A DNA stretch of 48,882 nucleotides, from assembly GCA_026196545.1 (NCBI GenBank), contig JAPHSZ010000128.1:1-48882 (forward strand). Reading direction: 5' to 3'. The position numbers were made by a program, and so were the translations under genes. Each line of letters opens with the position of its first letter. Positions within the stretch are counted from its first letter, which is position 1. This DNA is from Gammaproteobacteria bacterium. GTDB taxonomy: Bacteria > Pseudomonadota > Gammaproteobacteria > SZUA-229. The notes beneath the pieces are model-generated. The model did no database searches, was not told where the DNA came from, and saw nothing but the letters and a program-made list of their open reading frames with translations. Positions 17,008 through 48,676 of this stretch are shown piece after piece.

Positions 17008-17023
17008 TGCACTTACTATGCCA
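17008..17023 (-). promoter_or_regulatory. Candidate sigma-54 (-24/-12) promoter for the 193-aa PEP-CTERM gene
   Basis: The minus strand reads TGGCATAGTAAGTGCA. GG and GC sit exactly 12 nt apart as in the consensus TGGCAC-N5-TTGCA. It lies about 88 nt upstream of the ATG. A sigma-54-dependent activator (prsR, with a GAFTGA motif) is encoded in the same locus. Confidence 0.45.
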
Positions 17024-28219: not shown

Positions 28220-29575
28220 TTAAACTGTAATATTTAGCTTTTTAATTAAATCGTAGAGTGTTGGTCGACTAACACCTAGCAATTCAGCAGCAGGAGCTAT
28301 TTTTCCATTTACATGTGATATGGCTCGAACAATCGCCTGGCGCTCAACTTTTTCCCTAATAAGCCTTAAGTCATAATTCATTCTTTCTGCAGGTGCAGTA
28401 TCTAATTCAAGATCTGTTGCCGTTATATATTTTTCATCTGACATAATTACAGCACGTTTTATTTTGTTCTGAAGCTCACGTACATTTCCAGGCCATGCGT
28501 ATGATTCCATTGACGAAAGCGCATCTTTATTAAAACCCTTCAACTTACTGCCATGCTGCTCATTAAATTCATTAAAAAAATACTTGGCCAGCAAAATTAT
28601 ATCGCCTTCTCGGTCTCTTAGTGGTGGAATCTCTACTGGAATTTCACTAATTCTATAAAACAAATCCTCCCTAAATTCACCTTTCTCAATTTTTTCTCTT
28701 AAGTTCTGGTGTGTTGCACAAACGATGCGAACATTAACAGCTATTGGTTTATGACTACCAATACGTTCAATCACCCTTTCCTGCAAGAACCTTAATAGTT
28801 TTGCTTGCAAGGAAATTGGCAAGTCACCCATTTCATCAAGAAATAGCGTACCTCCATCCGCATATTCAATTTTTCCTATTGTCTGTTTTACAGCACCGGT
28901 AAAAGCACCTTTTTCATAACCAAACAATTCACTTTCCAACAAGTTATCTGGTATGGCGGCGCAATTTATTGCAACAAACTCCCCCTTTTTGTTCCTTCCT
29001 TTAACATGCAGTCCACGAGCACAAATTTCTTTTCCTGTTCCACTTTCACCAAGTAACAAAACAGTCGCATCTGATGGAGCAACCTTTTCAATGGCTTTGC
29101 ATACACTTTGCATCTGTGAGCTACAGGCTATAACCCCATTAAAGTGCTCATGATTTGATAAGTCATGCAGCTTCTTATTTTCAAGTTCTAGGTCATGAAG
29201 CCTAAATGCACGTTCTACAATAAGACTCATAATTTCTGGCTGAAAAGGCTTAGCATAAAAGTCATAAGCGCCAAACGCTATTGCTTGCATGGCATTTTCT
29301 TTTTCATCTTGGCCAGTTACTACTATAACCTTTGTATTGGGTTCAATTTCCAGGATACCTTTTAACGTTGCAATACCTTCAGATGTATTATCTATCTCTG
29401 GCGGCAAACCAAGATCCAGAGTAACCACAGCAGGTTTATATTGGCGCACCTGTTCAAGAGCACTGTCACGGTCATCAGCCAATAAAATGTCATAATTTTC
29501 AAAACACCACCTAATTTGACTTTGCAAACCAGGATCATCCTCTACTATCAGCAGTTTTGTTCTTTCTATTGACAT
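28220..29575 (-). CDS. prsR: PEP-CTERM-box response regulator transcription factor (NtrC-type sigma-54 activator)
   Basis: 451 aa. REC domain (VVTLDLGLPP), AAA+ sigma-54 interaction domain (GESGTGKE, GAFTGA) and a Fis-type HTH (LLGVSRPTLYDLIKKL). Lies directly downstream of the prsK-like kinase in an XrtA locus. Confidence 0.85.
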   Translation of the reverse strand: MSIERTKLLIVEDDPGLQSQIRWCFENYDILLADDRDSALEQVRQYKPAVVTLDLGLPPEIDNTSEGIATLKGILEIEPNTKVIVVTGQDEKENAMQAIAFGAYDFYAKPFQPEIMSLIVERAFRLHDLELENKKLHDLSNHEHFNGVIACSSQMQSVCKAIEKVAPSDATVLLLGESGTGKEICARGLHVKGRNKKGEFVAINCAAIPDNLLESELFGYEKGAFTGAVKQTIGKIEYADGGTLFLDEMGDLPISLQAKLLRFLQERVIERIGSHKPIAVNVRIVCATHQNLREKIEKGEFREDLFYRISEIPVEIPPLRDREGDIILLAKYFFNEFNEQHGSKLKGFNKDALSSMESYAWPGNVRELQNKIKRAVIMSDEKYITATDLELDTAPAERMNYDLRLIREKVERQAIVRAISHVNGKIAPAAELLGVSRPTLYDLIKKLNITV

Positions 29576-29630
29576 TTTTTTCTACCAAAAAACCAATTCA
29601 TTGTCGGAATATTTTACACCTAAAACACAA

Positions 29631-31700
29631 TTAAATACTATTATTAATTGGAATTCGGACAATAAAAATTGTTCCTGCTCCTAATTCACTAAACACTTCT
29701 ATATCACCACCTAAAGATGAAATAATTTCTCTAGATTCATATGCTCCTATTCCCATACCTCGTTCGCCCTTAGTAGTCTTAAAAGGTCTAAACAGCTCAT
29801 TTTTGATAAAATTCTCAGACATTCCACAACCTGTATCCTTGATTTCTATTACAAGCCAACCATCCTGTGTAGAAACCAATATATCTATATTGCCATCATC
29901 ATCAGTCGCATCCTGAGCATTTTGAATTAAATGACCAAAGATAGATAATAACTGTTCAGGATCTCCTTTTACATTACATTGCTCAATTTCACTCATTAAT
30001 TCAGGAATTGGTTTTCCGCCAGCTTTTTTACGATTAATAACGAGTTCATTCAAGAGATCAATAATATCAATAACTATAAATGACTTGGTAAGAACTTTAC
30101 CTTGTAGCTTCTCCATCATAACATTCATTTTATCAACAGAATTTGAAATTGTTTTTATTACATCCTCCATAAACAATGGATTACCCTTATGCTTTTCTGC
30201 ATTGCTAGTAATTAACGATAACTGAGTAACAAGATTTTTTATATCATGCACCATATAAGTTGACAACTTATTATAACTTTCAAATTGTTTAGCCTCAGCC
30301 AATTGCTCTGAGACTTCTCGTTGCACAATAAATGATGCTGCCTGCCTTGCAACAGTATTCAAAAGGTCACTATCTTCCCAATTAAAATGCTTATTGTGAA
30401 CTTTAGAATGATTGAGAACGATAAAGCCTATTAAATCATTTATATGTATTAATGGAACAATAAGCCATGCAGATACTTCGCGCACCCAGGAAGGGAGATT
30501 AAGCTCACCTAGACGATTATATACTTCTGGTGACATATCAAGCTCATCAACGCTTATTACAAACTTATTTTTATCTAAAAATTTAATTAATGATGAATTT
30601 GAAGATACTCTTTTATTTGTGCACATTATCTGATATGACTCAATACAATCATAGTATCCTGCCTCTTTTCGAAGCCAGAGCATTCCACCAGGACTATCAA
30701 TTATCTGGGCAATAGAGAGAATCGTCTTTGAATAAAAGCTTTGACCATCGTCTAAGCTAGATATTGTTTTAATAAACCTTAACCATTCATCTCGGTAATC
30801 ATATTTATAAGGATAAAAATGCTTATTAAGAAAGACTTTCCATCGTGTGCGAACACGATCAGAAAAAAGAAATAATAATAAAGATAATATAGTAAAAAAT
30901 AGAAGGAAGGCTTGTGCAACTAACCCCCAGCTACCACCATAATCCCGTACATAATAACCTGCTACCCCCATTGTCATAAGGTATACAGCACTCGCCAATA
31001 GAGTCGTTGTATGAAATACAACTTTTCTTGAAATAAATATTTCTGGTGACCATAAAGGATCTTTAATTACTGCTACTCCAATTAATGGCACAATCAATGC
31101 ATCAACAAATCCTCTTGCATGCCAGAGTGTAAGATCTATGCGTTTATATAAAAGCGCATCTGAGTACATATAAAAATCATAAACATACATACCTCCTAAC
31201 CCCAGGCATAGAAACTTTATTACTAGTCTCTGTTCTGGCCTTGTATTTCTGTAAAGCTGCTCAATTAGAACAATGCCAATAACAGAAAGCAATAAATGAC
31301 TAGCCAGCAGATAATTGAAGTTATTACCAAATGTTGTTGCATTATGATTCAGATATTGATACAAAACTGGAATCATCATTGCTGCAACAAATACAATGAT
31401 TGCGGCAATAGCGAACATAAAGCTTGTTGTTGTGATACCAGCGCCATACGCAACACTTAACATCATAAGAAGAAGCGTTATCCAGCTTATGCTCTTTGCA
31501 AACTCAAGAACCTGTGGTGTTATGAGATCACTTCCTGTTACAGCTTGGTAGGACATTGAAAGAGCCCATACACTGCTTAATAAAGAGGCAATAATAAGAA
31601 GTCTTTTTGCAGCTCCCTTATGCTTATCCGTAAGCAAAATTGCAAAAAATACAAGAAACGCTAGGGCACTGATAGAATAACCAATTGATCCGATATTCAT
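29631..31700 (-). CDS. prsK: XrtA/PEP-CTERM system sensor histidine kinase
   Basis: 689 aa. About 9-10 N-terminal TM helices, a GAF-like middle region, H-box MVHDIKNLVTQL, N-box LIQNAQDAT, and G-boxes DTGCGM and GMGIGAY. Gene order is prsT-prsK-prsR. Confidence 0.85.
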   Translation of the reverse strand: MNIGSIGYSISALAFLVFFAILLTDKHKGAAKRLLIIASLLSSVWALSMSYQAVTGSDLITPQVLEFAKSISWITLLLMMLSVAYGAGITTTSFMFAIAAIIVFVAAMMIPVLYQYLNHNATTFGNNFNYLLASHLLLSVIGIVLIEQLYRNTRPEQRLVIKFLCLGLGGMYVYDFYMYSDALLYKRIDLTLWHARGFVDALIVPLIGVAVIKDPLWSPEIFISRKVVFHTTTLLASAVYLMTMGVAGYYVRDYGGSWGLVAQAFLLFFTILSLLLFLFSDRVRTRWKVFLNKHFYPYKYDYRDEWLRFIKTISSLDDGQSFYSKTILSIAQIIDSPGGMLWLRKEAGYYDCIESYQIMCTNKRVSSNSSLIKFLDKNKFVISVDELDMSPEVYNRLGELNLPSWVREVSAWLIVPLIHINDLIGFIVLNHSKVHNKHFNWEDSDLLNTVARQAASFIVQREVSEQLAEAKQFESYNKLSTYMVHDIKNLVTQLSLITSNAEKHKGNPLFMEDVIKTISNSVDKMNVMMEKLQGKVLTKSFIVIDIIDLLNELVINRKKAGGKPIPELMSEIEQCNVKGDPEQLLSIFGHLIQNAQDATDDDGNIDILVSTQDGWLVIEIKDTGCGMSENFIKNELFRPFKTTKGERGMGIGAYESREIISSLGGDIEVFSELGAGTIFIVRIPINNSI

Positions 31701-31791
31701 CTTAGACCTTTAGCGCCATATAGATAAAGTAGACATCGCGTAATAGTAAATAAATGCCTAAGATTATCCTTTATCCCAAGCCACGACAAAT

Positions 31792-34059
31792 TTACTGTAG
31801 TTTCTGAAGAACGGCTTCTGCATCATCTTTACCAGAGAAGCCATTGTTTTTTTCAAGTGATCGAGCTAAATAAATTTTAGCTGCATTTAAATCGCCTGTT
31901 TTGTACAAGGCCATACCATAATGATAATTAAAAATATCTTCATAAGGCGATTTTTCAACAACAGTTTTTAAAATCTCAGCCGCTTCTGAGTAATTACCTG
32001 CTTTATAATAAGTCCAGGCCACCGTATCTAGAACAACCGCTTGGTCAATGTTTTTTATTTTATCAACAAGTTCAATAGCTCGATTTAAATCATTTTCATT
32101 ATCACCATGCTCAGAAAGAAGTGAAACCAGATTATTTATTAAAATTGTACTGTTACTATATTTTTTATATGCCTTTTCATATTCATTAATTGCGCTTTTA
32201 TAATCTTTAAGACCTACATATATTTGAGCCACTCTAAATGACATTTCCAGATCACTTTTTACACCTGCTTTAGCAAGATTTACTTTCGCATCAGTTATAT
32301 TTCCAGAAGCTATATGTATTTTTGCAAGAAGCGTATACAAATCAGCTGTGGCACCATCTTCCTGAATAGCAGACTCAACTTTACTTATTGCCTTGGTGAA
32401 ATTGTTCAAAGATGCATACAATGAAACTAATGGCTCAAAAAGAAGACCTTTATCACGGACCTTCTTATAACCTTCTTCTAATAAAGCAATAGCTTCTTTC
32501 TCGCTCTTTTCAGCTAGCAGATAGGGAACATACTGTATATATCCATCTGGCATATCTGGGTATAATTCGACCATCCGAACAGCATATATCTTCGCATCAG
32601 AAAACATTTTTCTTTCATTTAACAGAGTGCTTTTGAATGATAATGCCTCATAATTATTTTCATCTATCGAAAGGCAACTATCGATAATTTTTTCTAATTC
32701 AGCAGTGTTTTTATTTCTAGCATGATATTTAGCTAGTGATATCAGCCCATTAATGTTAGTTCTATTATTGTCATATGCTCGATAAATAATGTCTCTTGCC
32801 TGCTCATTTTCTCCATTACCTTTATGGGCAGCAGATAATAGAAAATATGCTTCGATTTTTTCAGGGTTATCTTTAACCACTGTCCTGAGAGAGATAACTG
32901 CTTCCTCATAATCTTCGTTCAATAGTTGTATTTTTGCATAAATAAAGTTAACTTCAGCATCATTAGGAGATATCTCTAACGCACTGTGTATAAGAGATGT
33001 AGCTGCCTCTATGTTTTCTTTTTGCATATAAAGATTTGCAAGATGAACTCTAGATTCAACACCAACTGAACCCTCAGAAAAGTCTGATACAGCTCCTTCT
33101 AATGCTTTAATCGCTTCGCTGTGATTTTTTTCTTCAAGATAAAGTTTTGCTAAACGAAGCCGAAGCTCACCCATCTCTTGATTCTCATTGATAATTCTCT
33201 TTAATTCGTCTATGGCACTTTGGTAACCTTTTGTTTGTTTGATAATATCAATTAATGCAGCTTTTCTATTAACATCATTAACATCATTCTTAATAGACTC
33301 ACGTAGAATATTTTCTGCTTTTTCAACATTTCCAATTTTTTTATAAAACAAGGCAAGTTTCAAATAATTAGAGAAAATTTCTGGATTTTTCTTCAAAATA
33401 TTTTTGTATTCATTTTCAGCTAGATTATGTTTTCCCGCAGCCAAGTATGCATTCGCCAACCTATTTACTAAGGAACTATCTTCAGGATTTTCTTTAATAC
33501 AGGCTTTAAGCACATTAATGGAGCTTTCATATTTTTCACCTCTTAGATAAAGTGCTGAAAGAAATACAGAATTCTGAATATAGCCTGGTTTTCTAGAAAA
33601 AATATCCTGTGCAATTTTTATTGCTTCATCGACATCATTTTGCTTAAAAAGAATACTTGCCTTAAGAAATAGTCCACTTGTATTATTTTTGTCTTGACCT
33701 AAAATAAAATCTCTTTTTTCAATAGCGGCATTAATATCACCAGCCAATACAAGATGATAGGTACCAATTTTTGCATGATATTCAAGATTATCCGGATCAA
33801 GTTCCACCGCCTTTGAATAGTTCCTGAACGCTTTGCGGTACTCTTTCTTTAAATCAAATATATTAGCCAATCGAAAATAAGCCTGCGCTTCATTAGGATC
33901 TATCTGAAGTACATTTTTTAGTTCTATGCGTGCTTTATCAAGATCACCAGCTTGCAAAGAAAGTTTGGCCTTTTCTAGATAAGCTGCTTTTCTTTCTTCT
34001 GCACCACCACAACCAGTTAGTGCTACTGTTACAATTATTGCTATAAAAAAATACTTCAT
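31792..34059 (-). CDS. prsT: PEP-CTERM system TPR-repeat lipoprotein
   Basis: 755 aa. Lipobox VALTG|C at the N-terminus, then an uninterrupted TPR array. Lies immediately upstream of prsK/prsR. Confidence 0.75.
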   Translation of the reverse strand: MKYFFIAIIVTVALTGCGGAEERKAAYLEKAKLSLQAGDLDKARIELKNVLQIDPNEAQAYFRLANIFDLKKEYRKAFRNYSKAVELDPDNLEYHAKIGTYHLVLAGDINAAIEKRDFILGQDKNNTSGLFLKASILFKQNDVDEAIKIAQDIFSRKPGYIQNSVFLSALYLRGEKYESSINVLKACIKENPEDSSLVNRLANAYLAAGKHNLAENEYKNILKKNPEIFSNYLKLALFYKKIGNVEKAENILRESIKNDVNDVNRKAALIDIIKQTKGYQSAIDELKRIINENQEMGELRLRLAKLYLEEKNHSEAIKALEGAVSDFSEGSVGVESRVHLANLYMQKENIEAATSLIHSALEISPNDAEVNFIYAKIQLLNEDYEEAVISLRTVVKDNPEKIEAYFLLSAAHKGNGENEQARDIIYRAYDNNRTNINGLISLAKYHARNKNTAELEKIIDSCLSIDENNYEALSFKSTLLNERKMFSDAKIYAVRMVELYPDMPDGYIQYVPYLLAEKSEKEAIALLEEGYKKVRDKGLLFEPLVSLYASLNNFTKAISKVESAIQEDGATADLYTLLAKIHIASGNITDAKVNLAKAGVKSDLEMSFRVAQIYVGLKDYKSAINEYEKAYKKYSNSTILINNLVSLLSEHGDNENDLNRAIELVDKIKNIDQAVVLDTVAWTYYKAGNYSEAAEILKTVVEKSPYEDIFNYHYGMALYKTGDLNAAKIYLARSLEKNNGFSGKDDAEAVLQKLQ

Positions 34060-34193
34060 GTTAATTAACTCTTATATTGGCATATATTAGTAATAGTGAT
34101 GAATAGATGCATATAAGTAATATATGTATTTATTTCTGACTACCTAAGAATAATAATGATTATCTTACGGTACTAACATAAGATAATAATGTA

Positions 34194-35927
34194 TTAATCA
34201 TCTATTTCATGTGTAACAAATCCTTCCCTAACGAGATAAAGGTATATGTCTTGAGCCGCTTGCATAGGCGACATATTCTCTGTATCTATCCTTATTTCAG
34301 GATTTTCAGGCACATCATAAGGATCACTAATACCCGTAAATTCTGGAATTAAACCTCTTCTAGCCTTGGCATATAATCCTTTACGATCTCGCCTTTCACA
34401 TTCCTCAAGTGAAGTTGCAACATATATCTCTACAAAAGCACCATATTGCTCAATAAGATTGCGAACATCACGTCGCATCTCAGTATATGGCGCTATTGGG
34501 GCACAAATAGCAATCCCCCTATTTTTTGTAATTTCACTTGCCACATAACCAATACGACTAACATTTAAATCCCTATCTTTTTTAGAAAACCCTAATTCAC
34601 TCGATAAATTATGTCTCACCACATCACCGTCCAGCAATGTCACAGGTCGTTTTCCATCTTCTATAAATTTTGCATAAATAATTCTAGCTAAAGTTGATTT
34701 TCCAGATCCAGACAATCCTGTAAAAAACAAAGTAAAACCCTGACCGGATCTAGGTGGACACACTCTGCTCATAACATCGATAACTTCAGGGTATGTCACC
34801 CATGAAGGGAGTGTTTTGCCTCTTAATATGGCATCGAGAATATTGCTATTTGAAAAAGATTGACTACTATGGCTATTTTTATTTAGCCTATTTTTTGTTA
34901 CAAAATGCTTATTGTCATTATCATAACAAAGCTCATCGATATTAATAATATTAATTTCAAGTTCGTCTTCAAACTCTCTTACATATTTTTGAGAGGAACC
35001 TGTTGCATAAAATCGTGTAGCATTATCACGCACATTTGGAGGTGCAGCATGCTCAGCTCCTACAATGTAGTGACTACACCCATAATTCTGCCTTATAATG
35101 GCATTCATCAATGCTTCACGAGGCCCTGCCATTCTCATTGCTATTGGCAATAATGATAATTCTGTCATACTCTTTGGATAATGCTTCATTATGGCCTGAT
35201 AGCAATGAACACGTGCATAGTAATGTATATCTCCAGGTTTTGACATGCCAACAACTGGATGGATCAATATATGAGCATTAGCCTGGTCAGCAGCCCTCAT
35301 TGTAATTTCCTGATGCACGCAGTGCATGGGCTTACTGGTATGAAAAGCAACTACATTCTTCCATCCTAATTTGTCAAATAGTTGTCGTAACTGTATTGGT
35401 GTATGGCGCAATGTCTCAAAATCGTAGTGAAAAGGAAGCTGAATACCATGCACTGTACCACCGACATAAACCTGTTTTACTGAATTAAACAAATAATCAA
35501 CACCAGGATGCTGCTTATCTAAAGTCCCGTACACCTCTAGTGCTTCTTCGTTTTTGTCTGGACGCCAGATGCTTTCAATTGCTAAAACTGCTGGCATAAA
35601 TCCTTCAGTATCACATAAGGCAATTTTTTTACCTACTTCTAAGCTTTCAGCCTGTTTTTCATCAACATCAAGATAATAAGGTATGGGCCATAAGACACCA
35701 TTAGGTAAACGAGCAGTACTTACAACGCTTTCATATACATCCTTATTCATAAAGCCAGTTAAAGGAGAAAACGCACCATTTAACAATAATTCTAAATCAC
35801 ATTGCTGGCGCTGAGAAAGCGTAATTGATGAAAAAGATTCTGAATCTAATTTAAGTTGCTCGGCATCAAGCTCATTAAGCAAAAGATCTTTAAGCTCACC
35901 TTGATATGGTGGGATTAGGTGGTCCAT
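34194..35927 (-). CDS. cysC: ATP-sulfurylase-like / adenylylsulfate (APS) kinase fusion protein; sulfurylase motifs are substituted
   Basis: 577 aa. The C-terminal APS kinase looks intact (FFTGLSGSGKSTLA, LDGDVVRHNL, GFSKKDRDLNVSRIGYVA). The N-terminal domain aligns with Sat-type sulfurylase (HPVVGMSKPGDI, GPREALMNAIIRQNYG). However, it has HTSKPMHCVH in place of QTRNPxHRxH (35310-35354) and GAEHAAPP in place of GRDHAGPG (35037-35066). Confidence 0.8.
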   Translation of the reverse strand: MDHLIPPYQGELKDLLLNELDAEQLKLDSESFSSITLSQRQQCDLELLLNGAFSPLTGFMNKDVYESVVSTARLPNGVLWPIPYYLDVDEKQAESLEVGKKIALCDTEGFMPAVLAIESIWRPDKNEEALEVYGTLDKQHPGVDYLFNSVKQVYVGGTVHGIQLPFHYDFETLRHTPIQLRQLFDKLGWKNVVAFHTSKPMHCVHQEITMRAADQANAHILIHPVVGMSKPGDIHYYARVHCYQAIMKHYPKSMTELSLLPIAMRMAGPREALMNAIIRQNYGCSHYIVGAEHAAPPNVRDNATRFYATGSSQKYVREFEDELEINIINIDELCYDNDNKHFVTKNRLNKNSHSSQSFSNSNILDAILRGKTLPSWVTYPEVIDVMSRVCPPRSGQGFTLFFTGLSGSGKSTLARIIYAKFIEDGKRPVTLLDGDVVRHNLSSELGFSKKDRDLNVSRIGYVASEITKNRGIAICAPIAPYTEMRRDVRNLIEQYGAFVEIYVATSLEECERRDRKGLYAKARRGLIPEFTGISDPYDVPENPEIRIDTENMSPMQAAQDIYLYLVREGFVTHEIDD

Positions 35928-36025
35928 AGTATTTTTACTCTACAAACTGAATCATCATAAATCAAACATAAATATTTAAAACCTATGCAATCCCTAGAAA
36001 AAGAATTCAAGCATTATTAAAAATA

Positions 36026-36790
36026 TCAGAATTTTGACTTGTTAAGAACACTGCCTATAACATTAGTTACTGAAAGAATATCAATAGCATCTTTGAGATC
36101 ATCTTCCTTAGTGACATCATCTTCAATAACAAGTAGAGCGGAATCAATGCATGGAGCAATAGACATTGCATCTGCTGTACCAAGAATGGGAGGCAAATCA
36201 AATAAAATAATTCTTTTTGGATAATGATCCTTTAATGTCTCAACTAGAGTACACATTTTAGGTGATCCCATCATTTCTGCGGTACTTAACAGAGGCATTC
36301 CTCCAGGTAAAATCATTAGATGATCAATCTCTTTTGGACGATATAAGACATCATTGAGCGCTATATCATCACGCAAATAATCGCTCAAACCCATATTAGT
36401 ACTAGCACCGAAATATTTGTTCACTTTGGGCTGCCTAAGATTCGCATCTACCAGTAAAACCGAATACTCAATTTCTTTTGCAATACTTATAGCTAAATTT
36501 ATTGCCACTGTTGTCTTTCCTTCATTACCACGTGGACTAGTAATAGCTAGTGTATTCCAACGATGCTCTTCCATACGTTGCAATGTCTGTATTGCCAGAA
36601 TATTAAAGGCATCTACATATTCATCGTGCTCAAGTGCAGTGATTATACGATTTTCTCGCATTAATAAATCAGAGCCTTCAACAGCTTGTGCTTCAGAATA
36701 GTTAATAATCGAGTCACCCAACCCTGATGAGCCAGAACCTGTATTCCTCTCATGTCGAGCCCTATCAAGTGCCTGTTTTATTTTTTCCAT
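36026..36790 (-). CDS. XrtA-locus tyrosine-autokinase-like P-loop ATPase (BY-kinase/MinD fold)
   Basis: 254 aa. Walker A SPRGNEGKTT, Walker A' LLVDANLRQP, Walker B IILFDLPP. No Tyr in the last ~30 residues. Confidence 0.75.
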   Translation of the reverse strand: MEKIKQALDRARHERNTGSGSSGLGDSIINYSEAQAVEGSDLLMRENRIITALEHDEYVDAFNILAIQTLQRMEEHRWNTLAITSPRGNEGKTTVAINLAISIAKEIEYSVLLVDANLRQPKVNKYFGASTNMGLSDYLRDDIALNDVLYRPKEIDHLMILPGGMPLLSTAEMMGSPKMCTLVETLKDHYPKRIILFDLPPILGTADAMSIAPCIDSALLVIEDDVTKEDDLKDAIDILSVTNVIGSVLNKSKF

Positions 36791-36814
36791 TAGACCAAAC
36801 CCAAATAAGTATAT

Positions 36815-38566: not shown

Positions 38567-38617
38567 CTACTTAATGTTATATATTTTACTAAAAATGTGT
38601 TTTATACAAAAGAAAAA

Positions 38618-39835: not shown

Positions 39836-39885
39836 ATTTTTCACTCTCTCCTTACTTACAACGTTTATAGTTCTTACCAATGGTT

Positions 39886-40443: not shown

Positions 40444-40660
40444 TTAAAACAATAAGTTAATTAAAACCATTCTTTCCTTATTAAAATTTTTCATTTAGCA
40501 AATACGCCTATAATCTGGACAAAAACACCATTAAACCTCCATACACACTAAGCAATTTGTGAGTATATCAGACATCATAATGAATGGGGGTATTGCAATA
40601 TAAATACTTCAGAAAGCGATTTTTTACATATTAGGAATATCATTATTTTATAATATACCA

Positions 40661-42304
40661 TTATATCGTTATTCCTCGTATCGCCATCACTGATAATGAT
40701 GCACAGACAGAAATTGATAATATTTTAGAGCCAGATTTTCTAGATTGTATGAAAATCTCACATGCATAAAAAAGAATAATTATCTGCACGACAATTAAGG
40801 TTATACCAAGTGAATCTAATCCAGACGCAGAAACAAACCCCATTACTAGAGCCATCATAATCAGCAAATAATCCAATGGTGTAATTCTAAATTTTTCTGC
40901 GATAATCATACGGGCACTTATAAATGCAGAAATAGCCATTAATGCGTAAAAAAGATAGGTGATAGCTGTCCACTTTAAAAACCAATTGGGAGGATAAGAA
41001 GACAGTAAATATATTGAAAAACCAATCGAAACAAAAAGCACCAATCGCAATAAAGGGATTGAAAAGGAACCAGCCACTAACGTCAGCAATAGTAACCCAA
41101 GAAGACCTAATGAAAACAATCCAAAATCAACAGGGATCAAATTCGATGAAAAGGCAGCAAATATCAAAAATAACGACAAGCCACCTTCAAGAATCCATGA
41201 AGGAAACACTTTCAAGAAAGAATAGTTAATAAAAACATGGTCTAAAAAAACACGCTCATTGACATTTTCACAAGCATGCACAAGAAAATTGTTTTTTTCT
41301 AACAGAATTAGCGTCAAAAACACCACCAAAGCCAATAAGACATAGATTATGAAAGCCAATAAATCACTTTCATAAATTAAAAAAACGGAACAAAAGGCAA
41401 ACACTACCTGGATAGAATAAATAATAACGACTGATTCATAATGATAAAATCCCCTGGCTAATAAACGATGGTGTAAATGATCTTTTGTAGCCACAAATAA
41501 GCTAACCTTACGGCGTGCGCGGATTAAAAATACGACTAATGCATCAATTACAGGCAAGCCCAAGATAAGCATTGGTATAACCGGGGTCATCAAGGAGTTG
41601 GCAACCTGAGATAGATAAATAACTAATACACCAAGAATAAAGCCCAACGTTTGACTACCCCCATCCCCCATAAACACCCTTGCAGGATGAGAGTTAAATC
41701 GAAGAAAGCCAAAAATCCCGCCTATGGCTGAAATGGACATGAGTACTGCTAGAGCACTATCATTACTATAAGACAGGTACGCAATAGCTATCAAACTTAA
41801 TAACGCTTCGCCCCCCGCCAGTCCATCAAGACCATCGGACAAATTTAACGCATTAATCATACCCACTAATGCAACAATTGTAATAGGCTTAGCAATATAC
41901 TCAGGAATCACGCCCACTCTTAGAAAAGGAAAATGAGATATATATAAATCCCCATAATAAACAATAGCAATTACAGCTACAAGTTGCCCCATAAATTTTA
42001 CGTATGGCCCCAGGTCTTTAGCATCATCCCATGTGCCAAAAATTAACAGTACCAAGCATCCAAATATAAATGAAGAAATAAATGGAGTAAAATCTAACCA
42101 GATAAAAAGAGGACTTAATAAACCAATAACTATCCCTATACCGCCTACTCTTGGAATTGGAGATTCATGAACTTTTCTTTGGTCAGGCTGATCCATCATT
42201 CCGAATGTGGGAGCCCATCTGATCATCAATGGAGTAATGACCATGCTTATGGCCATAGAAATAATAGCTGCCAGAAGATACAGACCAAGATCATTTGAAG
42301 TCAT
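40661..42304 (-). CDS. Polyprenyl-phosphate HexNAc-1-phosphate transferase (MraY/WecA family) with a ~210-aa extra C-terminal membrane domain
   Basis: 547 aa. Motifs KVHESPIPRVGGIGI, NLSDGLDGLAGG and FMGDGGSQTLGF. Residues ~335-547 (nt 40664-41302) add about 6 further hydrophobic helices absent from typical ~350-aa family members. Confidence 0.75.
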   Translation of the reverse strand: MTSNDLGLYLLAAIISMAISMVITPLMIRWAPTFGMMDQPDQRKVHESPIPRVGGIGIVIGLLSPLFIWLDFTPFISSFIFGCLVLLIFGTWDDAKDLGPYVKFMGQLVAVIAIVYYGDLYISHFPFLRVGVIPEYIAKPITIVALVGMINALNLSDGLDGLAGGEALLSLIAIAYLSYSNDSALAVLMSISAIGGIFGFLRFNSHPARVFMGDGGSQTLGFILGVLVIYLSQVANSLMTPVIPMLILGLPVIDALVVFLIRARRKVSLFVATKDHLHHRLLARGFYHYESVVIIYSIQVVFAFCSVFLIYESDLLAFIIYVLLALVVFLTLILLEKNNFLVHACENVNERVFLDHVFINYSFLKVFPSWILEGGLSLFLIFAAFSSNLIPVDFGLFSLGLLGLLLLTLVAGSFSIPLLRLVLFVSIGFSIYLLSSYPPNWFLKWTAITYLFYALMAISAFISARMIIAEKFRITPLDYLLIMMALVMGFVSASGLDSLGITLIVVQIIILFYACEIFIQSRKSGSKILSISVCASLSVMAIRGITI

Positions 42305-42355
42305 TAAAAATCCTTTATACTCATCGCAACATTATTCATTAAAAAATCCTGTTTT

Positions 42356-43933
42356 TTACTCAGGCACATATTCAGGCAAGATTCCAACCAACTCTGAAGC
42401 AAATAAAGTAAGTCGTTTATCACCATCGGTTAAATCCTCACCTGGATGAATTGGCGTAATAAACCGTACAAGTGCACCGTCTGTCCTCGACTTATAAATA
42501 GAATCAAGCAGCAGGTATAATTTAACAGCCCACTGATTTGTAACAACGCGGCCACGCTGCTGAAGCCAATAATATACTAATTTTTTACTTCCACTTTTCT
42601 CAATGACCATTCTATTGACACTTAGCGGAGTATCACCAACATGCAAGCCATTCAATAATATTTCGGATGCATTAGTAATCAACCATCCCCCTCCAGGTAT
42701 GCAGGCTTTTGGAGAATGAGGAACTTTGTCTGCTCTTTGTGTCGCATAATAACCAATATATAAATTAACTAAATCCTGTCTTTTGTTACCTAAATAGTCC
42801 GACATTATGTAATCATCTAAATTTAAGGAATCCAGAACTTTTTGATCCATTTTTGTGTTATTCCCTATCCAATGATCAAACTTCTTAGGAAAGCTATAAA
42901 AATTCTTTCTATCTGGAATTAAATCAACTCTTTCTGGGAGCATATACATAGATACTGATACAGTAACAATTATCATAAAAATAATAATAAATTGATTAGG
43001 CACTAAACGTTCAGTTCTAAAATTATCAGCGGGTGATGAGTCAGGCAATTCAAGCCCAAACACCTGCACAAGCGGACGAGAATCTTTGCCTATTTTTGTT
43101 AAAATTGACATCTCAAGAATTAATACAGCCATACAAACCATGAACATAAACCATCCTTCAAAATCATGAAGGATTCCTTCAGCCATTTTTACACCCCAAT
43201 ATTCAACTGTGACTCCAATAATACCTATTCTTAGACTATTCATTAATATAGTAATTGGAATTGTAGAAAAGAATATTAAAATACGTTTCCATAGATCAAC
43301 TTTGAAGAAATAGGCTGCTATAAAACCTAATGTCATAAAAGGAAATAAATAGCGTAATCCGCTACATGCCTCAACAACTTGAAGCTTATAGACACCAAGA
43401 TCAATAATATTACCCTCAAGAAAAACAGATATATCAAAGAGTCGTATAAACCAAACTCCTATCATCGATGAAATTAACTGAAGCTCATTAGATAATGTCT
43501 GATACAAAAAACCAGGCAAAGGAACCATAAACAATAATATAGCCAAAGGCATGAATATTATTTTAAATGCAGAATATCCCATAAAAGCAAGACAAACACC
43601 CATAACTGTTACAACAAATCCGTAAGCAACAATATCAATAACTGCACTTAAAGTGCCTATCCCATACAATACAACTCCTAATAAAACAATCATCACACCA
43701 TACCATGACCCGGTAAATGGTATTTTTTCTAAAACATCTTTTTTTTGCCATACCAAAAAAATTGATATCATAGGAATAAGATAACCATGACTATATTCTT
43801 CCCTCTCCCAACTCTTGATCATTTCAAGAATTCCCTGTTCAAACAAAAACCAGGATAAAGATAGCAGCACAAATATCATTGCCCAAATAATAGCTGGCAT
43901 CTTAAAAATAACTCGATCACTCATAAATTTCAC
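42356..43933 (-). CDS. xrtA: Exosortase A fused to an EpsI-family domain
   Basis: 525 aa. Exosortase catalytic-type motifs VVEACSGLRYLFPF (Cys), LMNSLRIG (Arg) and ILHDFEGW (His) sit in a polytopic N-terminal half. The C-terminal ~220 aa carries the EpsI-type PHSPKACIPGGGW motif. GTG start, with an ATG 3 codons in. Confidence 0.85.
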   Translation of the reverse strand: MKFMSDRVIFKMPAIIWAMIFVLLSLSWFLFEQGILEMIKSWEREEYSHGYLIPMISIFLVWQKKDVLEKIPFTGSWYGVMIVLLGVVLYGIGTLSAVIDIVAYGFVVTVMGVCLAFMGYSAFKIIFMPLAILLFMVPLPGFLYQTLSNELQLISSMIGVWFIRLFDISVFLEGNIIDLGVYKLQVVEACSGLRYLFPFMTLGFIAAYFFKVDLWKRILIFFSTIPITILMNSLRIGIIGVTVEYWGVKMAEGILHDFEGWFMFMVCMAVLILEMSILTKIGKDSRPLVQVFGLELPDSSPADNFRTERLVPNQFIIIFMIIVTVSVSMYMLPERVDLIPDRKNFYSFPKKFDHWIGNNTKMDQKVLDSLNLDDYIMSDYLGNKRQDLVNLYIGYYATQRADKVPHSPKACIPGGGWLITNASEILLNGLHVGDTPLSVNRMVIEKSGSKKLVYYWLQQRGRVVTNQWAVKLYLLLDSIYKSRTDGALVRFITPIHPGEDLTDGDKRLTLFASELVGILPEYVPE

Positions 43934-44016
43934 TTTATTATAAATTTAGATTTAAATGGATATATTTTTCATAATCCAGTAACATTCAAACTATAGCAAC
44001 AAATTCAAATTGTCTA

Positions 44017-45225
44017 CTACAAGTTTCTCAAGATATTACTCCATGAATCTGTCGCATGACGCTTATTAAAATTTTGTTCAAAAATATCTCTTATTTGAGT
44101 ACAATCCATTTGAGAAGCCTCTTCCTTTCTTGCTAATATTTTTATGTGCTCCGCAAGATCCTTATCACTTCCAATACTAAATGATGAGCCACAATCAAAT
44201 TCATTCAACACTCTAGCAATCTCTCCATTCAAATCACCAACAAAAATACTAGGACGACCAGCAGCAATTATTCCGTATATTTTGCTGGGCACAATTAGTC
44301 CTTCCAAGCTTGGATTTAGTGATACATAGTGCACATCGGGCACAGACAAACTCTCACTTAGATTCTCACGTGGCTGATATGGTTTAAAAATACAATTGTC
44401 TAAATCAAATTCTTTTACCGCAGCTTCAAGAAAACATTTTCCTGCGCCATCACCAACAAACAAAAACACAATTTTTTTTTCATCTCGTAACCATTTCATC
44501 GCACCAATAAGAGTGTCAAAATTATGTGCCCGCCCCATATTTCCAGAATATCCAACAACAAATTTGTCTTCAAGGTGCCATTTGCACCGTAATCTATTAT
44601 TAGTTTTCAATATTGGCTTAACATTATTCCCATCTGCCCAGTTAGTAATAACTCTAACCTTTGATTGAACTACACCCTGGGCACAAACATATTCTCTCAT
44701 TCGCTCGCCTAAAACCACATTCATGGAAGCACCTTTTAGAGAAAGATTACGTAACCATCGAGTTAGTCTGATCAATGGCCTCCACGTCAATATACCTAAG
44801 GCTTCCGCTACCTCAGGAAAAATATCCTGTATCCAATTAACTAGTTTTGCTCGTTTTAGTTTTGCAACCATCCAGGCTATCACGGATATAAGCGGCGGGT
44901 CTGTCTTAGCAATAATCACATCGTGACGATGAGTAATTCGGAACAAAGTTAAAAAGGCTGCTGGGTAAAATGAAAGATAATCTATTGCCCTACCGAATAA
45001 ATTACTACGGCCAAATCGTGTTGACCATACGCGAAAAACCTCAATTCCGGATATAGAATCATATTGTGGTAATTTTTCTTTTGGCTTCTCATAACACTGC
45101 CTGCTTGTAACAACCACTACCTCAAATCCCTCTAACGATAGCTCAAAAGCAAGATCAGATAACATCTGGCTGGTTGCAGACATATCAGGGTAAAAATACC
45201 TGTTTACAAATATTATTTTACTCAC
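44017..45225 (-). CDS. GT-B glycosyltransferase (GT4, WcaI-like)
   Basis: 402 aa with a GTG start. N-terminus IIFVNRYFYPDMSATSQMLSDLAFEL is typical of WcaI-like enzymes. C-terminal Rossmann half includes PSKIYGIIAAGRP. Confidence 0.7.
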   Translation of the reverse strand: MSKIIFVNRYFYPDMSATSQMLSDLAFELSLEGFEVVVVTSRQCYEKPKEKLPQYDSISGIEVFRVWSTRFGRSNLFGRAIDYLSFYPAAFLTLFRITHRHDVIIAKTDPPLISVIAWMVAKLKRAKLVNWIQDIFPEVAEALGILTWRPLIRLTRWLRNLSLKGASMNVVLGERMREYVCAQGVVQSKVRVITNWADGNNVKPILKTNNRLRCKWHLEDKFVVGYSGNMGRAHNFDTLIGAMKWLRDEKKIVFLFVGDGAGKCFLEAAVKEFDLDNCIFKPYQPRENLSESLSVPDVHYVSLNPSLEGLIVPSKIYGIIAAGRPSIFVGDLNGEIARVLNEFDCGSSFSIGSDKDLAEHIKILARKEEASQMDCTQIRDIFEQNFNKRHATDSWSNILRNL

Positions 45226-45310
45226 TAACCGCTAAGAATAGGGTTTAATATTACCTACTCATCTCTCCTGACTAAAACTTTAATATTTTATACAATAAGA
45301 AACGTACAGA

Positions 45311-45327
45311 ACACTAAATATTAGTGT
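45311..45327. promoter_or_regulatory. 17-bp inverted repeat ACACTA-N5-TAGTGT in the divergent GT/GT intergenic region
   Basis: acactaaatattagtgt with perfect 6-bp arms. Lies between divergently transcribed genes. Confidence 0.15.
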
Positions 45328-45364
45328 ATGCTTATTAACCTACACTTAAGATGTTGTACTTTAA

Positions 45365-45380
45365 GGCAAATTTCATACCA
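45365..45380 (-). promoter_or_regulatory. Weaker sigma-54-like -24/-12 candidate upstream of the minus-strand GT/xrtA genes
   Basis: The minus strand reads TGGTATGAAATTTGCC. GG and GC are correctly 12 nt apart and the -12 TTGC is perfect, but the -24 element is TGGTAT instead of TGGCAC. About 140 nt upstream of the start at 45225. Confidence 0.2.
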
Positions 45381-45397
45381 TTAATAGCAAAATATAC

Positions 45398-46525
45398 ATG
45401 CAGATAACACAAATAATACAAGGCGTACATAATCCATCTGCAGGCCCAACCTATTCTGTTGCAAAACTGGCTGACGAACTGTATAAGTCAAATTTAAATG
45501 CCTCAATTCTCACATTGGGTAAACAACCCGAAAAATGGCCTTATCAGGCAAAATTAAACATTTATTCTGGGTGGATAGAGAGGCATATCGGCATTTCTTT
45601 TAATCTTATTAAAGAGTTACGTAAGCATGCATTGCAGCCAGGCATATTACATGGTCATGGAATCTGGCGTATTACCAATCTCTTCCCACTACTAATCCCT
45701 AAAAATTCTCCAACTAAAATCATCTGTAGCCCTCGGGGTACTCTATCTGAATGGAGCATGAAGTATAAATCAACAGTAAAAATGCCATTCTGGAAACTCC
45801 TACAGAAACCAGCACTTCTACACTGTCATTGCTTCCATGCCACTTCAAAGGCAGAATATGAAGATATTCGGAGAGTAGGCCTTCACGGCCCTGTTGCTTT
45901 AATTCCTAATGGTATTGATATTCCTGAGATACCACCCTCAAAACCGCATAAAAAACAAGTAGTCTTCCTCAGTCGAATCAACCCCATCAAAGGCCTTGAT
46001 ATCCTGCTACCTGCATGGAAAGCGATTAGTAGCAACTTCAATGACTGGGAACTAGTAATAGCAGGCCCTCTAAACAACAACTACGCCCAGTCTGTTCAGG
46101 CACGTGCACATAGACTCAAGATACCTAGAATTAAATTTGTTGATGAAGTACTCGACCAGGAAAAAAACAAACTTCTAAGTGAAGCCTCACTGTTCGTTCT
46201 ACCCAGCTACTCAGAAAATTTTGGCATGGCAGTTGTCGAGGCACTTGCACACGGCACCCCCGTCATAACCACAACGGGAACCCCATGGACAAAACTTAAA
46301 GAAAAAAAATGCGGTTGGTGCATTAACCCAGATCAAAATGCATTGGAATACGCATTACAAGAAGCCATGAGTCAACCACCAGAATTATTAAAAGAAATGG
46401 GTAGAAATGGACGACATTGGATGCAAACAGATTATTCATGGCAACATGTAACTAAAATGATGCAACAAACATACGAATGGCTACTTAGTGACACTCCTAA
46501 GCCAGACTGGATAATTGAAGAATAA
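45398..46525 (+). CDS. GT-B glycosyltransferase (GT4 family)
   Basis: 375 aa. Signature PSYSENFGMAVVEALAHGTPVITT (E-x7-E region). Confidence 0.75.
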   Translation: MQITQIIQGVHNPSAGPTYSVAKLADELYKSNLNASILTLGKQPEKWPYQAKLNIYSGWIERHIGISFNLIKELRKHALQPGILHGHGIWRITNLFPLLIPKNSPTKIICSPRGTLSEWSMKYKSTVKMPFWKLLQKPALLHCHCFHATSKAEYEDIRRVGLHGPVALIPNGIDIPEIPPSKPHKKQVVFLSRINPIKGLDILLPAWKAISSNFNDWELVIAGPLNNNYAQSVQARAHRLKIPRIKFVDEVLDQEKNKLLSEASLFVLPSYSENFGMAVVEALAHGTPVITTTGTPWTKLKEKKCGWCINPDQNALEYALQEAMSQPPELLKEMGRNGRHWMQTDYSWQHVTKMMQQTYEWLLSDTPKPDWIIEE

Positions 46526-46535
46526 TCGTACGCTT

Positions 46536-47420
46536 ATGAAAAAACCAAATTTCTTTATCATTGGTGCACCTAAATGTGGAACCACATCACTGGCAAATTG
46601 GCTCAGGGAACATCCAAATATTTTTATGCCTGAGCATCCTAAAGAACCCATGTTTTTTGACACCGACATCACCAAACATAATCTATCTTTACAGCAATAT
46701 GAAAAATTATTTCATAATACAAATAAATCACACATTGCAGTTGGTGAAGCATCTACTACTTACCTAAGATCCAAAGTAGCTATTGATAAAATTCTTGAAT
46801 ACTCACTTAATGCCAAATTCATTATCACTGTTCGAAACCCTGTCGAAATGGCTATCTCTGGCCATTCACAGATGCTTTATACATTACATGAAGATATAAC
46901 TGACTTTCAAGAAGCATGGGAAGCGCAAAAAGACCGAAAAGAAGGAAAACGTATCCCAAAAAAATGTAAAGATCAAAGCCACAAACTATTTTATGGTGAA
47001 GTCTGCAAGATTGGTGAACAACTCAACAAAGTTTACCAATCTGTCTCGCAAGAAAATATCAAAGTTATTTTTCTGGATGATTTAAAAAATAATCCGGCGC
47101 AAACTTACAACGAGACTCTCGAATTTCTAAACGTACCCAATGATGAACGTCAGGATTTTTCTGCTGCCAATACTCGTAAAAAACCAAAAAAAGTTCTATT
47201 AAGTCATACACTATACATGCTAGGTAAAACAAAAAGAGCTCTTGGTTTGCAGGGAATAAATACCGGGATTCTTGCTGGTATTCATAAATGGAATCAAGTA
47301 CCTAAAAAAAACATTAACCTTAATCATAAATTCAAAAAAGAGCTCATCGACTATTTTCATGATGATATAGAGATTTTATCTGATCTGACTAACAGAGATC
47401 TTTCACATTGGATGAAATAG
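46536..47420 (+). CDS. Stand-alone PAPS-dependent sulfotransferase
   Basis: I place the start at ATG 46536; the ORF-track start at 46515 is TTG and overlaps the upstream gene. 5'-PSB loop FFIIGAPKCGTTSL lies directly at the N-terminus. 3'-PB-like ITVRNPVEMAIS. Confidence 0.8.
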   Translation: MKKPNFFIIGAPKCGTTSLANWLREHPNIFMPEHPKEPMFFDTDITKHNLSLQQYEKLFHNTNKSHIAVGEASTTYLRSKVAIDKILEYSLNAKFIITVRNPVEMAISGHSQMLYTLHEDITDFQEAWEAQKDRKEGKRIPKKCKDQSHKLFYGEVCKIGEQLNKVYQSVSQENIKVIFLDDLKNNPAQTYNETLEFLNVPNDERQDFSAANTRKKPKKVLLSHTLYMLGKTKRALGLQGINTGILAGIHKWNQVPKKNINLNHKFKKELIDYFHDDIEILSDLTNRDLSHWMK

Positions 47421-47443
47421 CATTTTCAAAATTAACCTACCAA

Positions 47444-48676
47444 CTAACTAGACTGAAGACGATATTCACTCGATCTGTATAAATATAGCACAGAGGCAAA
47501 AGACGCAAGAAACGTCGCTATAGCTGCTCCAAGTAAACCTAATATGGGTATCATTAGCAAGTTTGCACCAACATTAAGTATTGCACCAAGCCCCACGCCT
47601 TTGGTCACCACCATGGTTTTTCCATTAAGCTCATATTCTTTATTTAAAAATGGCGAAATTCCAAATACAACCTGAGAAACAACAATAATGACCATTATCT
47701 CTGTTCCCACATAATACTCAGGATAAAAATAGGCTCTAAATGGTATAACCATTATGCAACCTAAGAATGCAATTAAAACAATATAACGTATGTAATAACC
47801 TAATGCTCTATCAACAAGAGCCAGCGCATCACTCTCTCCTTTCTCGTTATTAATACGCAAGACCTTTGGATAAAAAATCAACATCATCAAAGTTAACGGC
47901 ACAGTAACTATACTACTGGATAATTGATATCCTAATATATAACTTGCCACCTGTTCTGTAGGCTCCCAAAATGTTAACAGATAACGATCTGACAGTGATA
48001 TAACCCATACCGCAATAGCATGGATCACTAGTGGAGCCCCATATATAAAATATTGTTTGCAAATGCTCAAATCTAGATAAGGAATTGGTGGGAAAACAAA
48101 TATACCCATCCTAATCCAGGCAACAAGTGAAATGAGTATATCTAAAATCGCATACACCATAAGTGAGTATGAAATCTGCCCACTCTCACCTATTGCACAA
48201 ATACCAAGAAATATCCCAAGAGAAAAAGCAAGCCCACAATGCGTTACAAAAAAAGCTTTGTGGTTTTCAGCCGCATTAAAAACGCCAAGAATACCTATCT
48301 TTAGGCCTGTAGCGATCAAAAGAAGTGGTACCAACCTATATATAGAATCTGTAACAATAGAAGTTACAATAACAACTAACAACAAGACTAGAGATAATAG
48401 AGAAAAGTAGGCAAAAACAGTCTGTCGAATCTGATTCTCATCAGTTTTCAGTAAATCATGCACATAACGATAAATAGCTTTGGACAACCAGCCAAATACA
48501 ATTGAAGCCCCTAACAAAGCCAGAGGCATTACCAGATTAAATTCCACATAATCCTGAGGAATCAGTACTTTTGGAGCCACAAGCACTAGCATTATTTGTG
48601 TTAACATCTGAATTCCGCGCCCCATTAGCGTATAAACAGTTGGTGACTTCATAAATCTGACAATAATTTGATACAT
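47444..48676 (-). CDS. Wzx-like oligosaccharide/polysaccharide flippase (MOP superfamily)
   Basis: 410 aa, about 12 hydrophobic helices, no soluble domain. Position in a polysaccharide gene cluster. The assignment rests on topology and context. Confidence 0.5.
   Translation of the reverse strand: MYQIIVRFMKSPTVYTLMGRGIQMLTQIMLVLVAPKVLIPQDYVEFNLVMPLALLGASIVFGWLSKAIYRYVHDLLKTDENQIRQTVFAYFSLLSLVLLLVVIVTSIVTDSIYRLVPLLLIATGLKIGILGVFNAAENHKAFFVTHCGLAFSLGIFLGICAIGESGQISYSLMVYAILDILISLVAWIRMGIFVFPPIPYLDLSICKQYFIYGAPLVIHAIAVWVISLSDRYLLTFWEPTEQVASYILGYQLSSSIVTVPLTLMMLIFYPKVLRINNEKGESDALALVDRALGYYIRYIVLIAFLGCIMVIPFRAYFYPEYYVGTEIMVIIVVSQVVFGISPFLNKEYELNGKTMVVTKGVGLGAILNVGANLLMIPILGLLGAAIATFLASFASVLYLYRSSEYRLQSS

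Follow-up and report, generated by a model that had tools for sequence, protein, structure and literature searches.

Can an exosortase locus carry its own supply of activated sulfate, and what would it sulfate? The question is raised by contig JAPHSZ010000128.1 of an uncultured Gammaproteobacteria bacterium (SZUA-229; assembly GCA_026196545.1), whose 48,882 nt are referred to throughout as the window. An earlier note on this DNA had described positions 28220–48676 as an XrtA/PEP-CTERM exopolysaccharide (EPS) locus with an embedded sulfation supply line. Our analysis confirmed that the observation is real and non-random and that its interpretation is right in substance, with two corrections: the exosortase is XrtD, and the supply covers only the kinase step. 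With a probability of roughly 0.65, we read the region as an XrtD (VPLPA-CTERM) exosortase/EPS locus with a dedicated step for making 3'-phosphoadenosine 5'-phosphosulfate (PAPS) and with PAPS-dependent sulfotransferases, the predicted product being a sulfated extracellular matrix. The apparent wiring of a kinase-only PAPS supply and sulfotransferases into an exosortase/PrsKRT locus is what is new, and no published description of it was found.

The core locus is present as claimed. All 14 open reading frames between 28220 and 48676 are present with the boundaries given for them, and their families, assigned by NCBIfam and Pfam profile scans, fit the roles proposed. The genes are as follows (scores in bits, followed by the curated cutoff where one applies):

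28220–29575, minus strand: PrsR, sigma-54-dependent response regulator (TIGR02915, 692/503)
29631–31700, minus strand: PrsK, membrane histidine kinase (TIGR02916, 735/300)
31792–34059, minus strand: PrsT-like TPR lipoprotein with lipobox LTGC (TIGR02917, 256/312, below cutoff; its place after the kinase gene is conserved)
34194–35927, minus strand: predicted two-domain adenosine 5'-phosphosulfate (APS) kinase, with a degenerate sulfurylase-like N-domain and an intact kinase C-domain (NF004040, 793/669)
36026–36790, minus strand: P-loop ATPase resembling bacterial tyrosine kinases (BY-kinase-like), without a Tyr-rich tail (TIGR03018, 171/231, below cutoff)
36815–38566, minus strand: polysaccharide chain-length determinant (PCP) with a Wzz domain (TIGR03007, 249/279, below cutoff)
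38618–39880, minus strand: putative outer-membrane beta-barrel protein for export (TIGR03016 matched weakly, 25 bits; related loci also have it between OPX and PCP)
39886–40443, minus strand: OPX polysaccharide export protein (PF02563 and SLBB; TIGR03027, 146/180, below cutoff)
40661–42304, minus strand: WecA/MraY-family priming phosphoglycosyl transferase with a long C-terminal membrane extension (PF00953, 129 bits)
42356–43933, minus strand: exosortase XrtD fused to EpsI (TIGR04152, 574.9/400; EpsI TIGR02914, 116.9/42.8)
44017–45225, minus strand: WcaI-like GT4 glycosyltransferase (NCBIfam and Pfam scans)
45398–46525, plus strand: GT4 glycosyltransferase (PF00534, 102 bits)
46536–47420, plus strand: stand-alone PAPS-type sulfotransferase of the Sulfotransfer_1 family, here called ST1 (PF00685, 59 bits)
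47444–48676, minus strand: putative Wzx-type flippase with multiple transmembrane helices (weak HfsF similarity, NF050818, 43/700; no Pfam match)

Eleven of these genes form an uninterrupted minus-strand series from prsR to the WcaI-like gene (28220–45225), the second GT4 gene and ST1 follow on the plus strand, and the flippase gene is the last in the window, the contig ending 206 nt beyond it at 48882. The parts of a Wzx/Wzy pathway found in the window are the priming transferase, the glycosyltransferases, the weakly matching flippase, the PCP, the BY-kinase-like ATPase and the OPX protein, and no Wzy is among them. An Rfam scan of the whole window returned no RNA family match.

The gene at 34194–35927 carries much of the argument. 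It lies between the export genes and prsT, as had been claimed, but the supply line is incomplete, as the QxRN and GRD motifs of the sulfurylase are lost. Active-site motifs were read from alignments to solved enzymes, namely the active sulfurylases of Penicillium, yeast and Aquifex together with 3CR8 of Thiobacillus denitrificans. Where the active enzymes read FQTRNPMH[RN]xH and VGRDHAG, the window protein reads FHTSKPMHCVH and VGAEHAA; QxRN has lost its Arg and Asn, GRD has lost its Arg and Asp, and HxxH is kept (HCVH). The APS kinase motifs GLSGSGKST, LLDGDVVRH and FTGISDPY are intact, and the kinase half is nearly the same, motif for motif, as that of 3CR8. Judged by these motifs, the product is a two-domain APS kinase whose sulfurylase-like N-domain is predicted to be inactive. 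Because the sulfurylase active-site motifs are lost, the locus would be able to make PAPS only from APS supplied elsewhere. A complete PAPS synthase of the Aquifex 2GKS type was rejected owing to the same loss, although the whole-protein NF004040 score passes. The layout is that of the 3CR8 type, with two domains, degenerate sulfurylase motifs and an intact kinase domain, and every full-length orthologue from the XrtD loci shows the same degenerate motifs.

The closest characterized counterpart is the APS kinase of T. denitrificans, in which the sulfurylase-like domain is described as inactive and as stabilising the hexamer (Gay et al. 2009, as cited in PMC13213808). The alignment to 3CR8 spans residues 154–572, and 3CR8 likewise lacks QTRNP and GRDHAG. 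The two proteins share an N-domain with altered motifs and a C-terminal kinase domain with near-identical ones, but differ in how the N-domain has decayed (QARQP, HRAQ and GGEH in 3CR8; HTSKP, HCVH and GAEHAA in the window protein), and the N-domain of the window protein is closer to active sulfurylases than that of 3CR8. Moreover, the window gene has a fixed place in an EPS operon, unlike the gene for the T. denitrificans enzyme, and its activity is predicted. The APS kinase of Entamoeba histolytica also has an inactive sulfurylase-like domain of this kind. The identical protein in NCBI is named 'bifunctional sulfate adenylyltransferase/adenylylsulfate kinase', and many JGI relatives carry that name or 'sulfate adenylyltransferase'; as QxRN and GRD are lost, such names probably over-annotate the family, a problem that deserves to be flagged.

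The PAPS so made would have three potential consumers in the window. ST1 starts 10 nt after the preceding glycosyltransferase gene, as its description had it: in the DNA, the GT4 stop codon occupies 46523–46525 and the ST1 start codon begins at 46536, and the two genes are probably translationally coupled. The two further sulfotransferases placed outside the core were also borne out, as fusions of TPR and Sulfotransfer_3 domains:

17393–19282, plus strand: TPR and Sulfotransfer_3 protein, 629 aa, without signal peptide (PF13469, 158 bits; PAPS motifs intact)
19306–21183, plus strand: second TPR and Sulfotransfer_3 protein, 625 aa (PF13469, 151 bits)

These two are paralogues with 36% identity over their full length. 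All three sulfotransferases score above the Pfam gathering threshold (59, 158 and 151 bits), and their translations keep both PAPS-binding motifs, the 5'-phosphosulfate-binding motif (PKCGTT or PRSGTS) and the 3'-phosphate-binding motif (RNP, RDP or RNS ... S), as expected of PAPS-dependent enzymes. The solved relatives of ST1 are the bacterial sulfotransferase 3RNL (E 2.5e-21) and the heparan-sulfate sulfotransferases 3-OST/NDST (3-O- and N-sulfotransferases). Together with the coupling to the GT4 gene, these relatives suggest sulfation of a sugar on the lipid-linked repeat unit, and this would take place before flipping because PAPS is cytoplasmic. The sulfated product had been left open as polysaccharide or protein. 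Either remains a prediction, with polysaccharide the most likely: a sulfated exopolysaccharide ranks first because ST1 is carbohydrate-sulfotransferase-like and coupled to a glycosyltransferase, and because TPR-less Sulfotransfer_3 genes stand among glycosyltransferase genes in other XrtD loci (L002, L031, L042, L060 and L064; L-numbers denote surveyed loci).

The exosortase had been taken for XrtA, an assignment that the profile scores overturn. The protein reaches 177.2 bits against the XrtA model TIGR03109, whose cutoff is 208, and 574.9 bits against the XrtD model TIGR04152, whose cutoff is 400; being far above the XrtD cutoff and below that of XrtA, it is XrtD. The identical protein in NCBI, which comes from a metagenome-assembled genome, is named 'VPLPA-CTERM-specific exosortase XrtD [Gammaproteobacteria bacterium]'. 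For PrsT, the chain-length determinant, the autokinase and the export protein, the XrtA-associated models are the best matches and all fall below cutoff, as expected for a sister system, whereas PrsK and PrsR score above. An XrtD/VPLPA-CTERM system was found in both of its parts: the exosortase above the XrtD cutoff has a C-terminal EpsI, and one VPLPA-CTERM protein of the window scores above its own cutoff.

How general the arrangement is was assessed from both directions. The forward survey covered 80 XrtD loci (±10 kb) from species-representative genomes, annotated with the window proteins and iterated sulfotransferase profiles. Most of the 80 share a core of glycosyltransferase-XrtD-WecA-PrsT-PrsK-PrsR, with the WecA-like gene directly downstream of XrtD. 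Within 10 kb of XrtD, 6 of the 80 loci have an APS kinase (5 of the 57 whose downstream flank reaches 5 kb) and 13 of the 80 a sulfotransferase (13 of the 55 whose upstream flank reaches 5 kb); three have both, a borderline association (Fisher one-sided p = 0.051). The earlier note had proposed such a frequency survey around xrtA; run for XrtD loci within 10 kb, it gave a fixed kinase position wherever the gene is present, but kinase and sulfotransferases in a minority of loci. Thus, L013 and L014 read OPX-barrel-PCP-ATPase-kinase-PrsT, L002 reads WecA-kinase-PrsT, and in L047 the kinase stands beside XrtD. Among relatives on long contigs, the closest is L081 (79% XrtD identity); it has the architecture of the window, with the kinase between the export genes/WecA and PrsT, and the glycosyltransferase block immediately upstream of its XrtD gene contains two sulfotransferases. 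In L082 (61% identity), a sulfotransferase but no kinase lies within 10 kb.

The reverse survey started from the kinase. A metagenome scan, partly seeded on the motif AF[HG]TS[KN]PM, yielded 298 kinase relatives, and the best 80 were examined for context. A recognisable polysaccharide or exosortase gene accompanies the kinase in 55 of these best 80, with PrsT seen at 18 and an exosortase at 12. No neighbour was recognised at first in the remaining 25, of which the two larger loci, L119 and L122, were annotated further; the other 23 are nearly all on short contigs. The commonest order is OPX-barrel-PCP-ATPase-kinase, followed either by PrsT-PrsK-PrsR with XrtD upstream or by sugar-nucleotide genes and sulfotransferases. 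Type A relatives (60–75% identity) repeat the window as XrtD-WecA-OPX-barrel-PCP-ATPase-kinase-PrsT-PrsK-PrsR and often continue with a peptidyl-prolyl isomerase (PPIase)/choice-of-anchor protein and a VPVPAA...RR protein. In type B relatives (55–59% identity), other genes spanning about 3.6 kb separate OPX-(barrel)-PCP-ATPase from the kinase, and sulfotransferases follow the kinase in 10 loci. In type C (L119 and L122) the kinase comes after a phosphomannomutase gene in both, and in L122 it is followed by MurA/MurB paralogues and a Wzy-like gene. The source records include Methylococcales, Thiotrichaceae and Sedimenticola metagenome-assembled genomes and hydrothermal-vent metagenomes.

The order ATPase-kinase-PrsT is held down to about 60% kinase identity, and its recurrence in distant relatives upholds the view of an exosortase-linked EPS locus with a built-in sulfation module. 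Chance juxtaposition of the module was rejected on account of this conservation. None of the annotated kinase contexts of the reverse survey contains a sulfur-assimilation gene (cysH, cysDN, cysIJ or sulfate transport); all are polysaccharide loci, which is the strongest sequence-level argument against a housekeeping cysC.

The only type B locus annotated, L135 (1–21692), encodes UDP-glucose dehydrogenase, the enzymes from GDP-mannose to GDP-fucose, a TIGR03790 protein and sulfotransferases, which suggests a sulfated polymer containing fucose or uronic acid. L135 and L126–L159 constitute a second lineage that places the same kinase clade in an EPS locus. L111 and L114 show a different arrangement of the same parts, with an exosortase-like gene within about 3 kb after the kinase and, in L111, a sulfotransferase before it.

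The pathway that we propose would begin with APS that the cell produces independently of the locus, through CysDN or a stand-alone Sat. The two-domain kinase of the locus would convert APS to PAPS, its presumably dead sulfurylase-like domain probably acting, like that of the T. denitrificans enzyme, as a scaffold for oligomerisation. At the cytoplasmic face of the membrane, the WecA-like enzyme would prime undecaprenyl phosphate and the GT4 enzymes would assemble the repeat unit, which the heparan-sulfate-sulfotransferase-like ST1 would sulfate ahead of flipping. Export of the polymer would then involve the flippase, PCP, ATPase, OPX protein and barrel. XrtD/EpsI would process VPLPA-CTERM proteins such as the PepA-like 193-aa protein of the window, with the substrate gene or genes controlled by PrsK/PrsR together with sigma-54. 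The TPR-sulfotransferases may draw on the same PAPS pool for a second acceptor, possibly a protein.

Several observations weigh against a sulfated matrix as the product of this locus. Across XrtD loci as a whole, only a minority (~9–24%) have sulfation genes as accessories, and the co-occurrence of these genes is borderline. The window contains no active ATP sulfurylase, Wzy polymerase or 3'-phosphoadenosine 5'-phosphate (PAP) phosphatase. The acceptor specificity of a sulfotransferase is not readable from its sequence, and the TPR-sulfotransferases are closest to protein-tyrosine sulfotransferases.

That last similarity is the starting point of the alternative that survives best, although we consider it unlikely: that protein sulfation is the main purpose, the TPR-sulfotransferases modifying tyrosines or other residues of exported proteins, for example XrtD substrates, in the cytoplasm before export. 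RaxST/RaxX offers an analogy for sulfation of a protein in the cytoplasm prior to export. Protein-tyrosine sulfotransferases are the only best solved relatives that the C-terminal catalytic domains find (E 5e-8 to 5e-7), both enzymes carry TPR protein-interaction domains, and they adjoin a CPBP protease and a TPR-GT41 protein of the OGT-like, protein-modifying family (listed below). The weak matches and these neighbours make a protein acceptor possible for this pair. A 744-aa TPR-sulfotransferase homologue also lies about 1.2 kb from prsR in L092, the sole type A locus with such a gene. However, the similarity is weak and reflects the broad Sulfotransfer_3 fold, whose TPR-less members occur among glycosyltransferase genes in the five XrtD loci named above; the TPR-sulfotransferase pair is not conserved at the locus in most relatives; and the third enzyme, ST1, is coupled to a glycosyltransferase and resembles heparan-sulfate sulfotransferases.

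Rather improbable, in our estimate, is a different acceptor altogether, whether lipopolysaccharide/O-antigen, an exosortase-unrelated capsule, a lipid or a small molecule, with exosortase and sulfation as mere neighbours in a low-GC surface-glycan island. The interval from 16 to 49 kb is indeed a low-GC island, at about 35%, next to housekeeping genes of 46% GC, and low-GC islands often pool several glycan pathways. The lack of a Wzy in the window fits this explanation, as do the type B and C kinase loci without an exosortase within 10 kb. Mere neighbourhood accounts poorly for the position of the kinase inside the XrtD-WecA-export-PrsTKR block, on one strand and with short gaps, both in the window and in the type A relatives. 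It accounts equally poorly for the ST1-GT4 pair divergently adjacent to the XrtD operon, or for the two sulfotransferases directly upstream of XrtD in L081.

Very improbable is a housekeeping role, in which the gene would be an ordinary assimilatory APS kinase feeding PAPS reductase for cysteine and only incidentally placed in an EPS locus: the NCBI name of the protein fits such a role, but its degenerate sulfurylase half makes it no self-sufficient assimilation enzyme, the ATPase-kinase-PrsT order is kept over long distances, sulfotransferases recur beside the kinase gene, and the annotated contexts among the 80 reverse-survey loci are all of the polysaccharide kind. The objection that the gene might be the only assimilatory cysC of the organism is thereby answered as far as sequence can answer it.

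The sulfated-matrix reading also agrees with what is known of sulfated polysaccharides elsewhere. The combination of PAPS genes and sulfotransferases within one polysaccharide cluster has been described as a hallmark of the synthesis of sulfated polysaccharides (PMC11641403). Like the window, the capsular polysaccharide cluster of Vibrio sp. KMM 8419 (PMC11641403) and the xss cluster for synechan in Synechocystis (PMC8205485) combine polysaccharide genes with sulfotransferases and one or more extra sulfate-activation genes, and in both sulfation is presumed to be cytoplasmic. The Vibrio cluster differs in having cysNDC copies and an ABC/Kps export route, whereas the window encodes the kinase step only. 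Neither cluster is an exosortase/PrsKRT locus, and the main text of the synechan paper mentions neither exosortase nor PEP-CTERM (PMC8205485).

On the exosortase side, the XrtA/PEP-CTERM floc systems (PMC1569441; Zoogloea and Aquincola, PMC9850573) share with the window the exosortase and EpsI, the PrsK/PrsR/PrsT trio, a large EPS locus with OPX, PCP and BY-kinase-like ATPase, and a small secreted substrate, weakly PepA-like in the window, with a sigma-54-like promoter. They differ in exosortase subtype and in substrate tail, which is VPLPA-CTERM in the window, and their descriptions include no sulfotransferase or APS kinase, both of which the window has. The founding description of exosortase (Haft 2006, PMC1569441) contains no sulfation component. 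The suspicion that sulfation lies outside the standard account of XrtA systems held up in full-text searches, in which no paper linked exosortase or PEP-CTERM with sulfotransferases or sulfated EPS. Literature on XrtD or VPLPA-CTERM was essentially absent from the texts searched. With the XrtD/VPLPA-CTERM system as modelled by TIGR04152 and TIGR03370, the window shares an XrtD-EpsI fusion and a VPLPA-CTERM protein above the cutoffs, and it has the core order of most of the 80 loci. XrtD loci are mostly without an export cassette between WecA and PrsT and without sulfation genes, whereas the window has both.

Sulfated extracellular polysaccharides are usually regarded as rare in bacteria outside cyanobacteria, as in the abstract of the synechan paper (PMC8205485), and only a few bacterial clusters have so far been linked to a product of this kind. 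An APS kinase with a presumably dead sulfurylase domain inside an OPX-PCP-ATPase operon offers a compact genetic signature and a testable marker for sulfated matrices. It recurs in about 300 metagenomic loci, where the flank permits usually with exosortase genes and often with sulfotransferase genes, and from it sulfated matrices would be expected in bacteria that are abundant but uncultured. Such polyanionic matrices, if real, would affect metal and cation binding, aggregation, and carbon and sulfur cycling, and the enzymes of the locus are candidates for making sulfated glycans. A bolder and, at present, doubtful extension is that the gene marks a widespread exosortase-linked class of sulfated matrix in uncultured Gammaproteobacteria, in which XrtD would couple VPLPA-CTERM proteins to a sulfated glycan in a proteoglycan-like manner and the TPR-fused enzymes resembling protein-tyrosine sulfotransferases would sulfate the sorted proteins.

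The remaining features lie between the housekeeping genes and prsR:

16339–16920, minus strand: secreted VPLPA-CTERM protein, 193 aa (TIGR03370, 31.2/25.35)
17008–17023, minus strand: sigma-54-like −24/−12 element TGGCAT-N5-GTGCA (pattern match with 2 mismatches; GG-N10-GC kept)
21180–21896, plus strand: CPBP/Rce1-like intramembrane protease, 238 aa (PF02517, 29 bits)
21921–24191, minus strand: polytopic membrane protein, 756 aa, with a central soluble domain (no match in Pfam and NCBIfam scans)
24291–26153, minus strand: TPR and GT41 (O-GlcNAc-transferase-like) glycosyltransferase (PF13844, 183 bits)
26186–28138, minus strand: secreted cyclophilin PPIase with choice-of-anchor D/U domains, a C-terminal transmembrane helix and a basic tail (NCBIfam and Pfam scans)

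The 193-aa VPLPA-CTERM protein is the predicted XrtD substrate. Its C-terminus is VPVPAAVWLFGSGLLGLVGVARRKKAA, it reaches 38.9 bits against the floc_PepA model (cutoff 80), and homologues with the same tail adjoin the related loci L096, L106, L115 and L151. The sigma-54-like element lies about 90 nt upstream of its ATG and is a candidate PrsR/RpoN target. It is a weak lead, for which position alone speaks: across the window the pattern has 40 matches against 30.6 expected and is not enriched, and the intergenic regions 40444–40660 and 45226–45397 contain no site. An element upstream of the substrate gene would agree with the RpoN dependence of pepA genes in Aquincola (PMC9850573) and with the description of a sigma-54 motif ahead of PEP-CTERM genes (PMC1569441). 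A 1654-aa tandem-95/cadherin-like adhesin (10820–15784, minus strand) has an N-terminal domain of about 150 aa nearly identical to that of the 193-aa protein (TFFGSIWTAHSGTTFGPGTY...DIDVVNVW). The adhesin repeats related segments. Its C-terminus consists of a transmembrane helix and RRRYRN and lacks a clear VPLPA motif, so that the tail may be a variant one and the protein a second substrate for sorting.

The 756-aa membrane protein sits between the CPBP protease and TPR-GT41 genes, and a polymerase or ligase-like role is a candidate function for it because no Wzy was found in the window. The housekeeping genes (secDF, heme O synthase, mfd and csiV; 1–16000) have a GC content of about 46%, against about 33–38% in 16000–48882, and the surface-matrix region from 16 to 49 kb is island-like in its low-GC composition. 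Homologues of the PPIase/choice-of-anchor protein stand directly after prsR in L095, L096 and L106, as in the window, and the protein looks like a conserved, so far undescribed accessory of this XrtD system.

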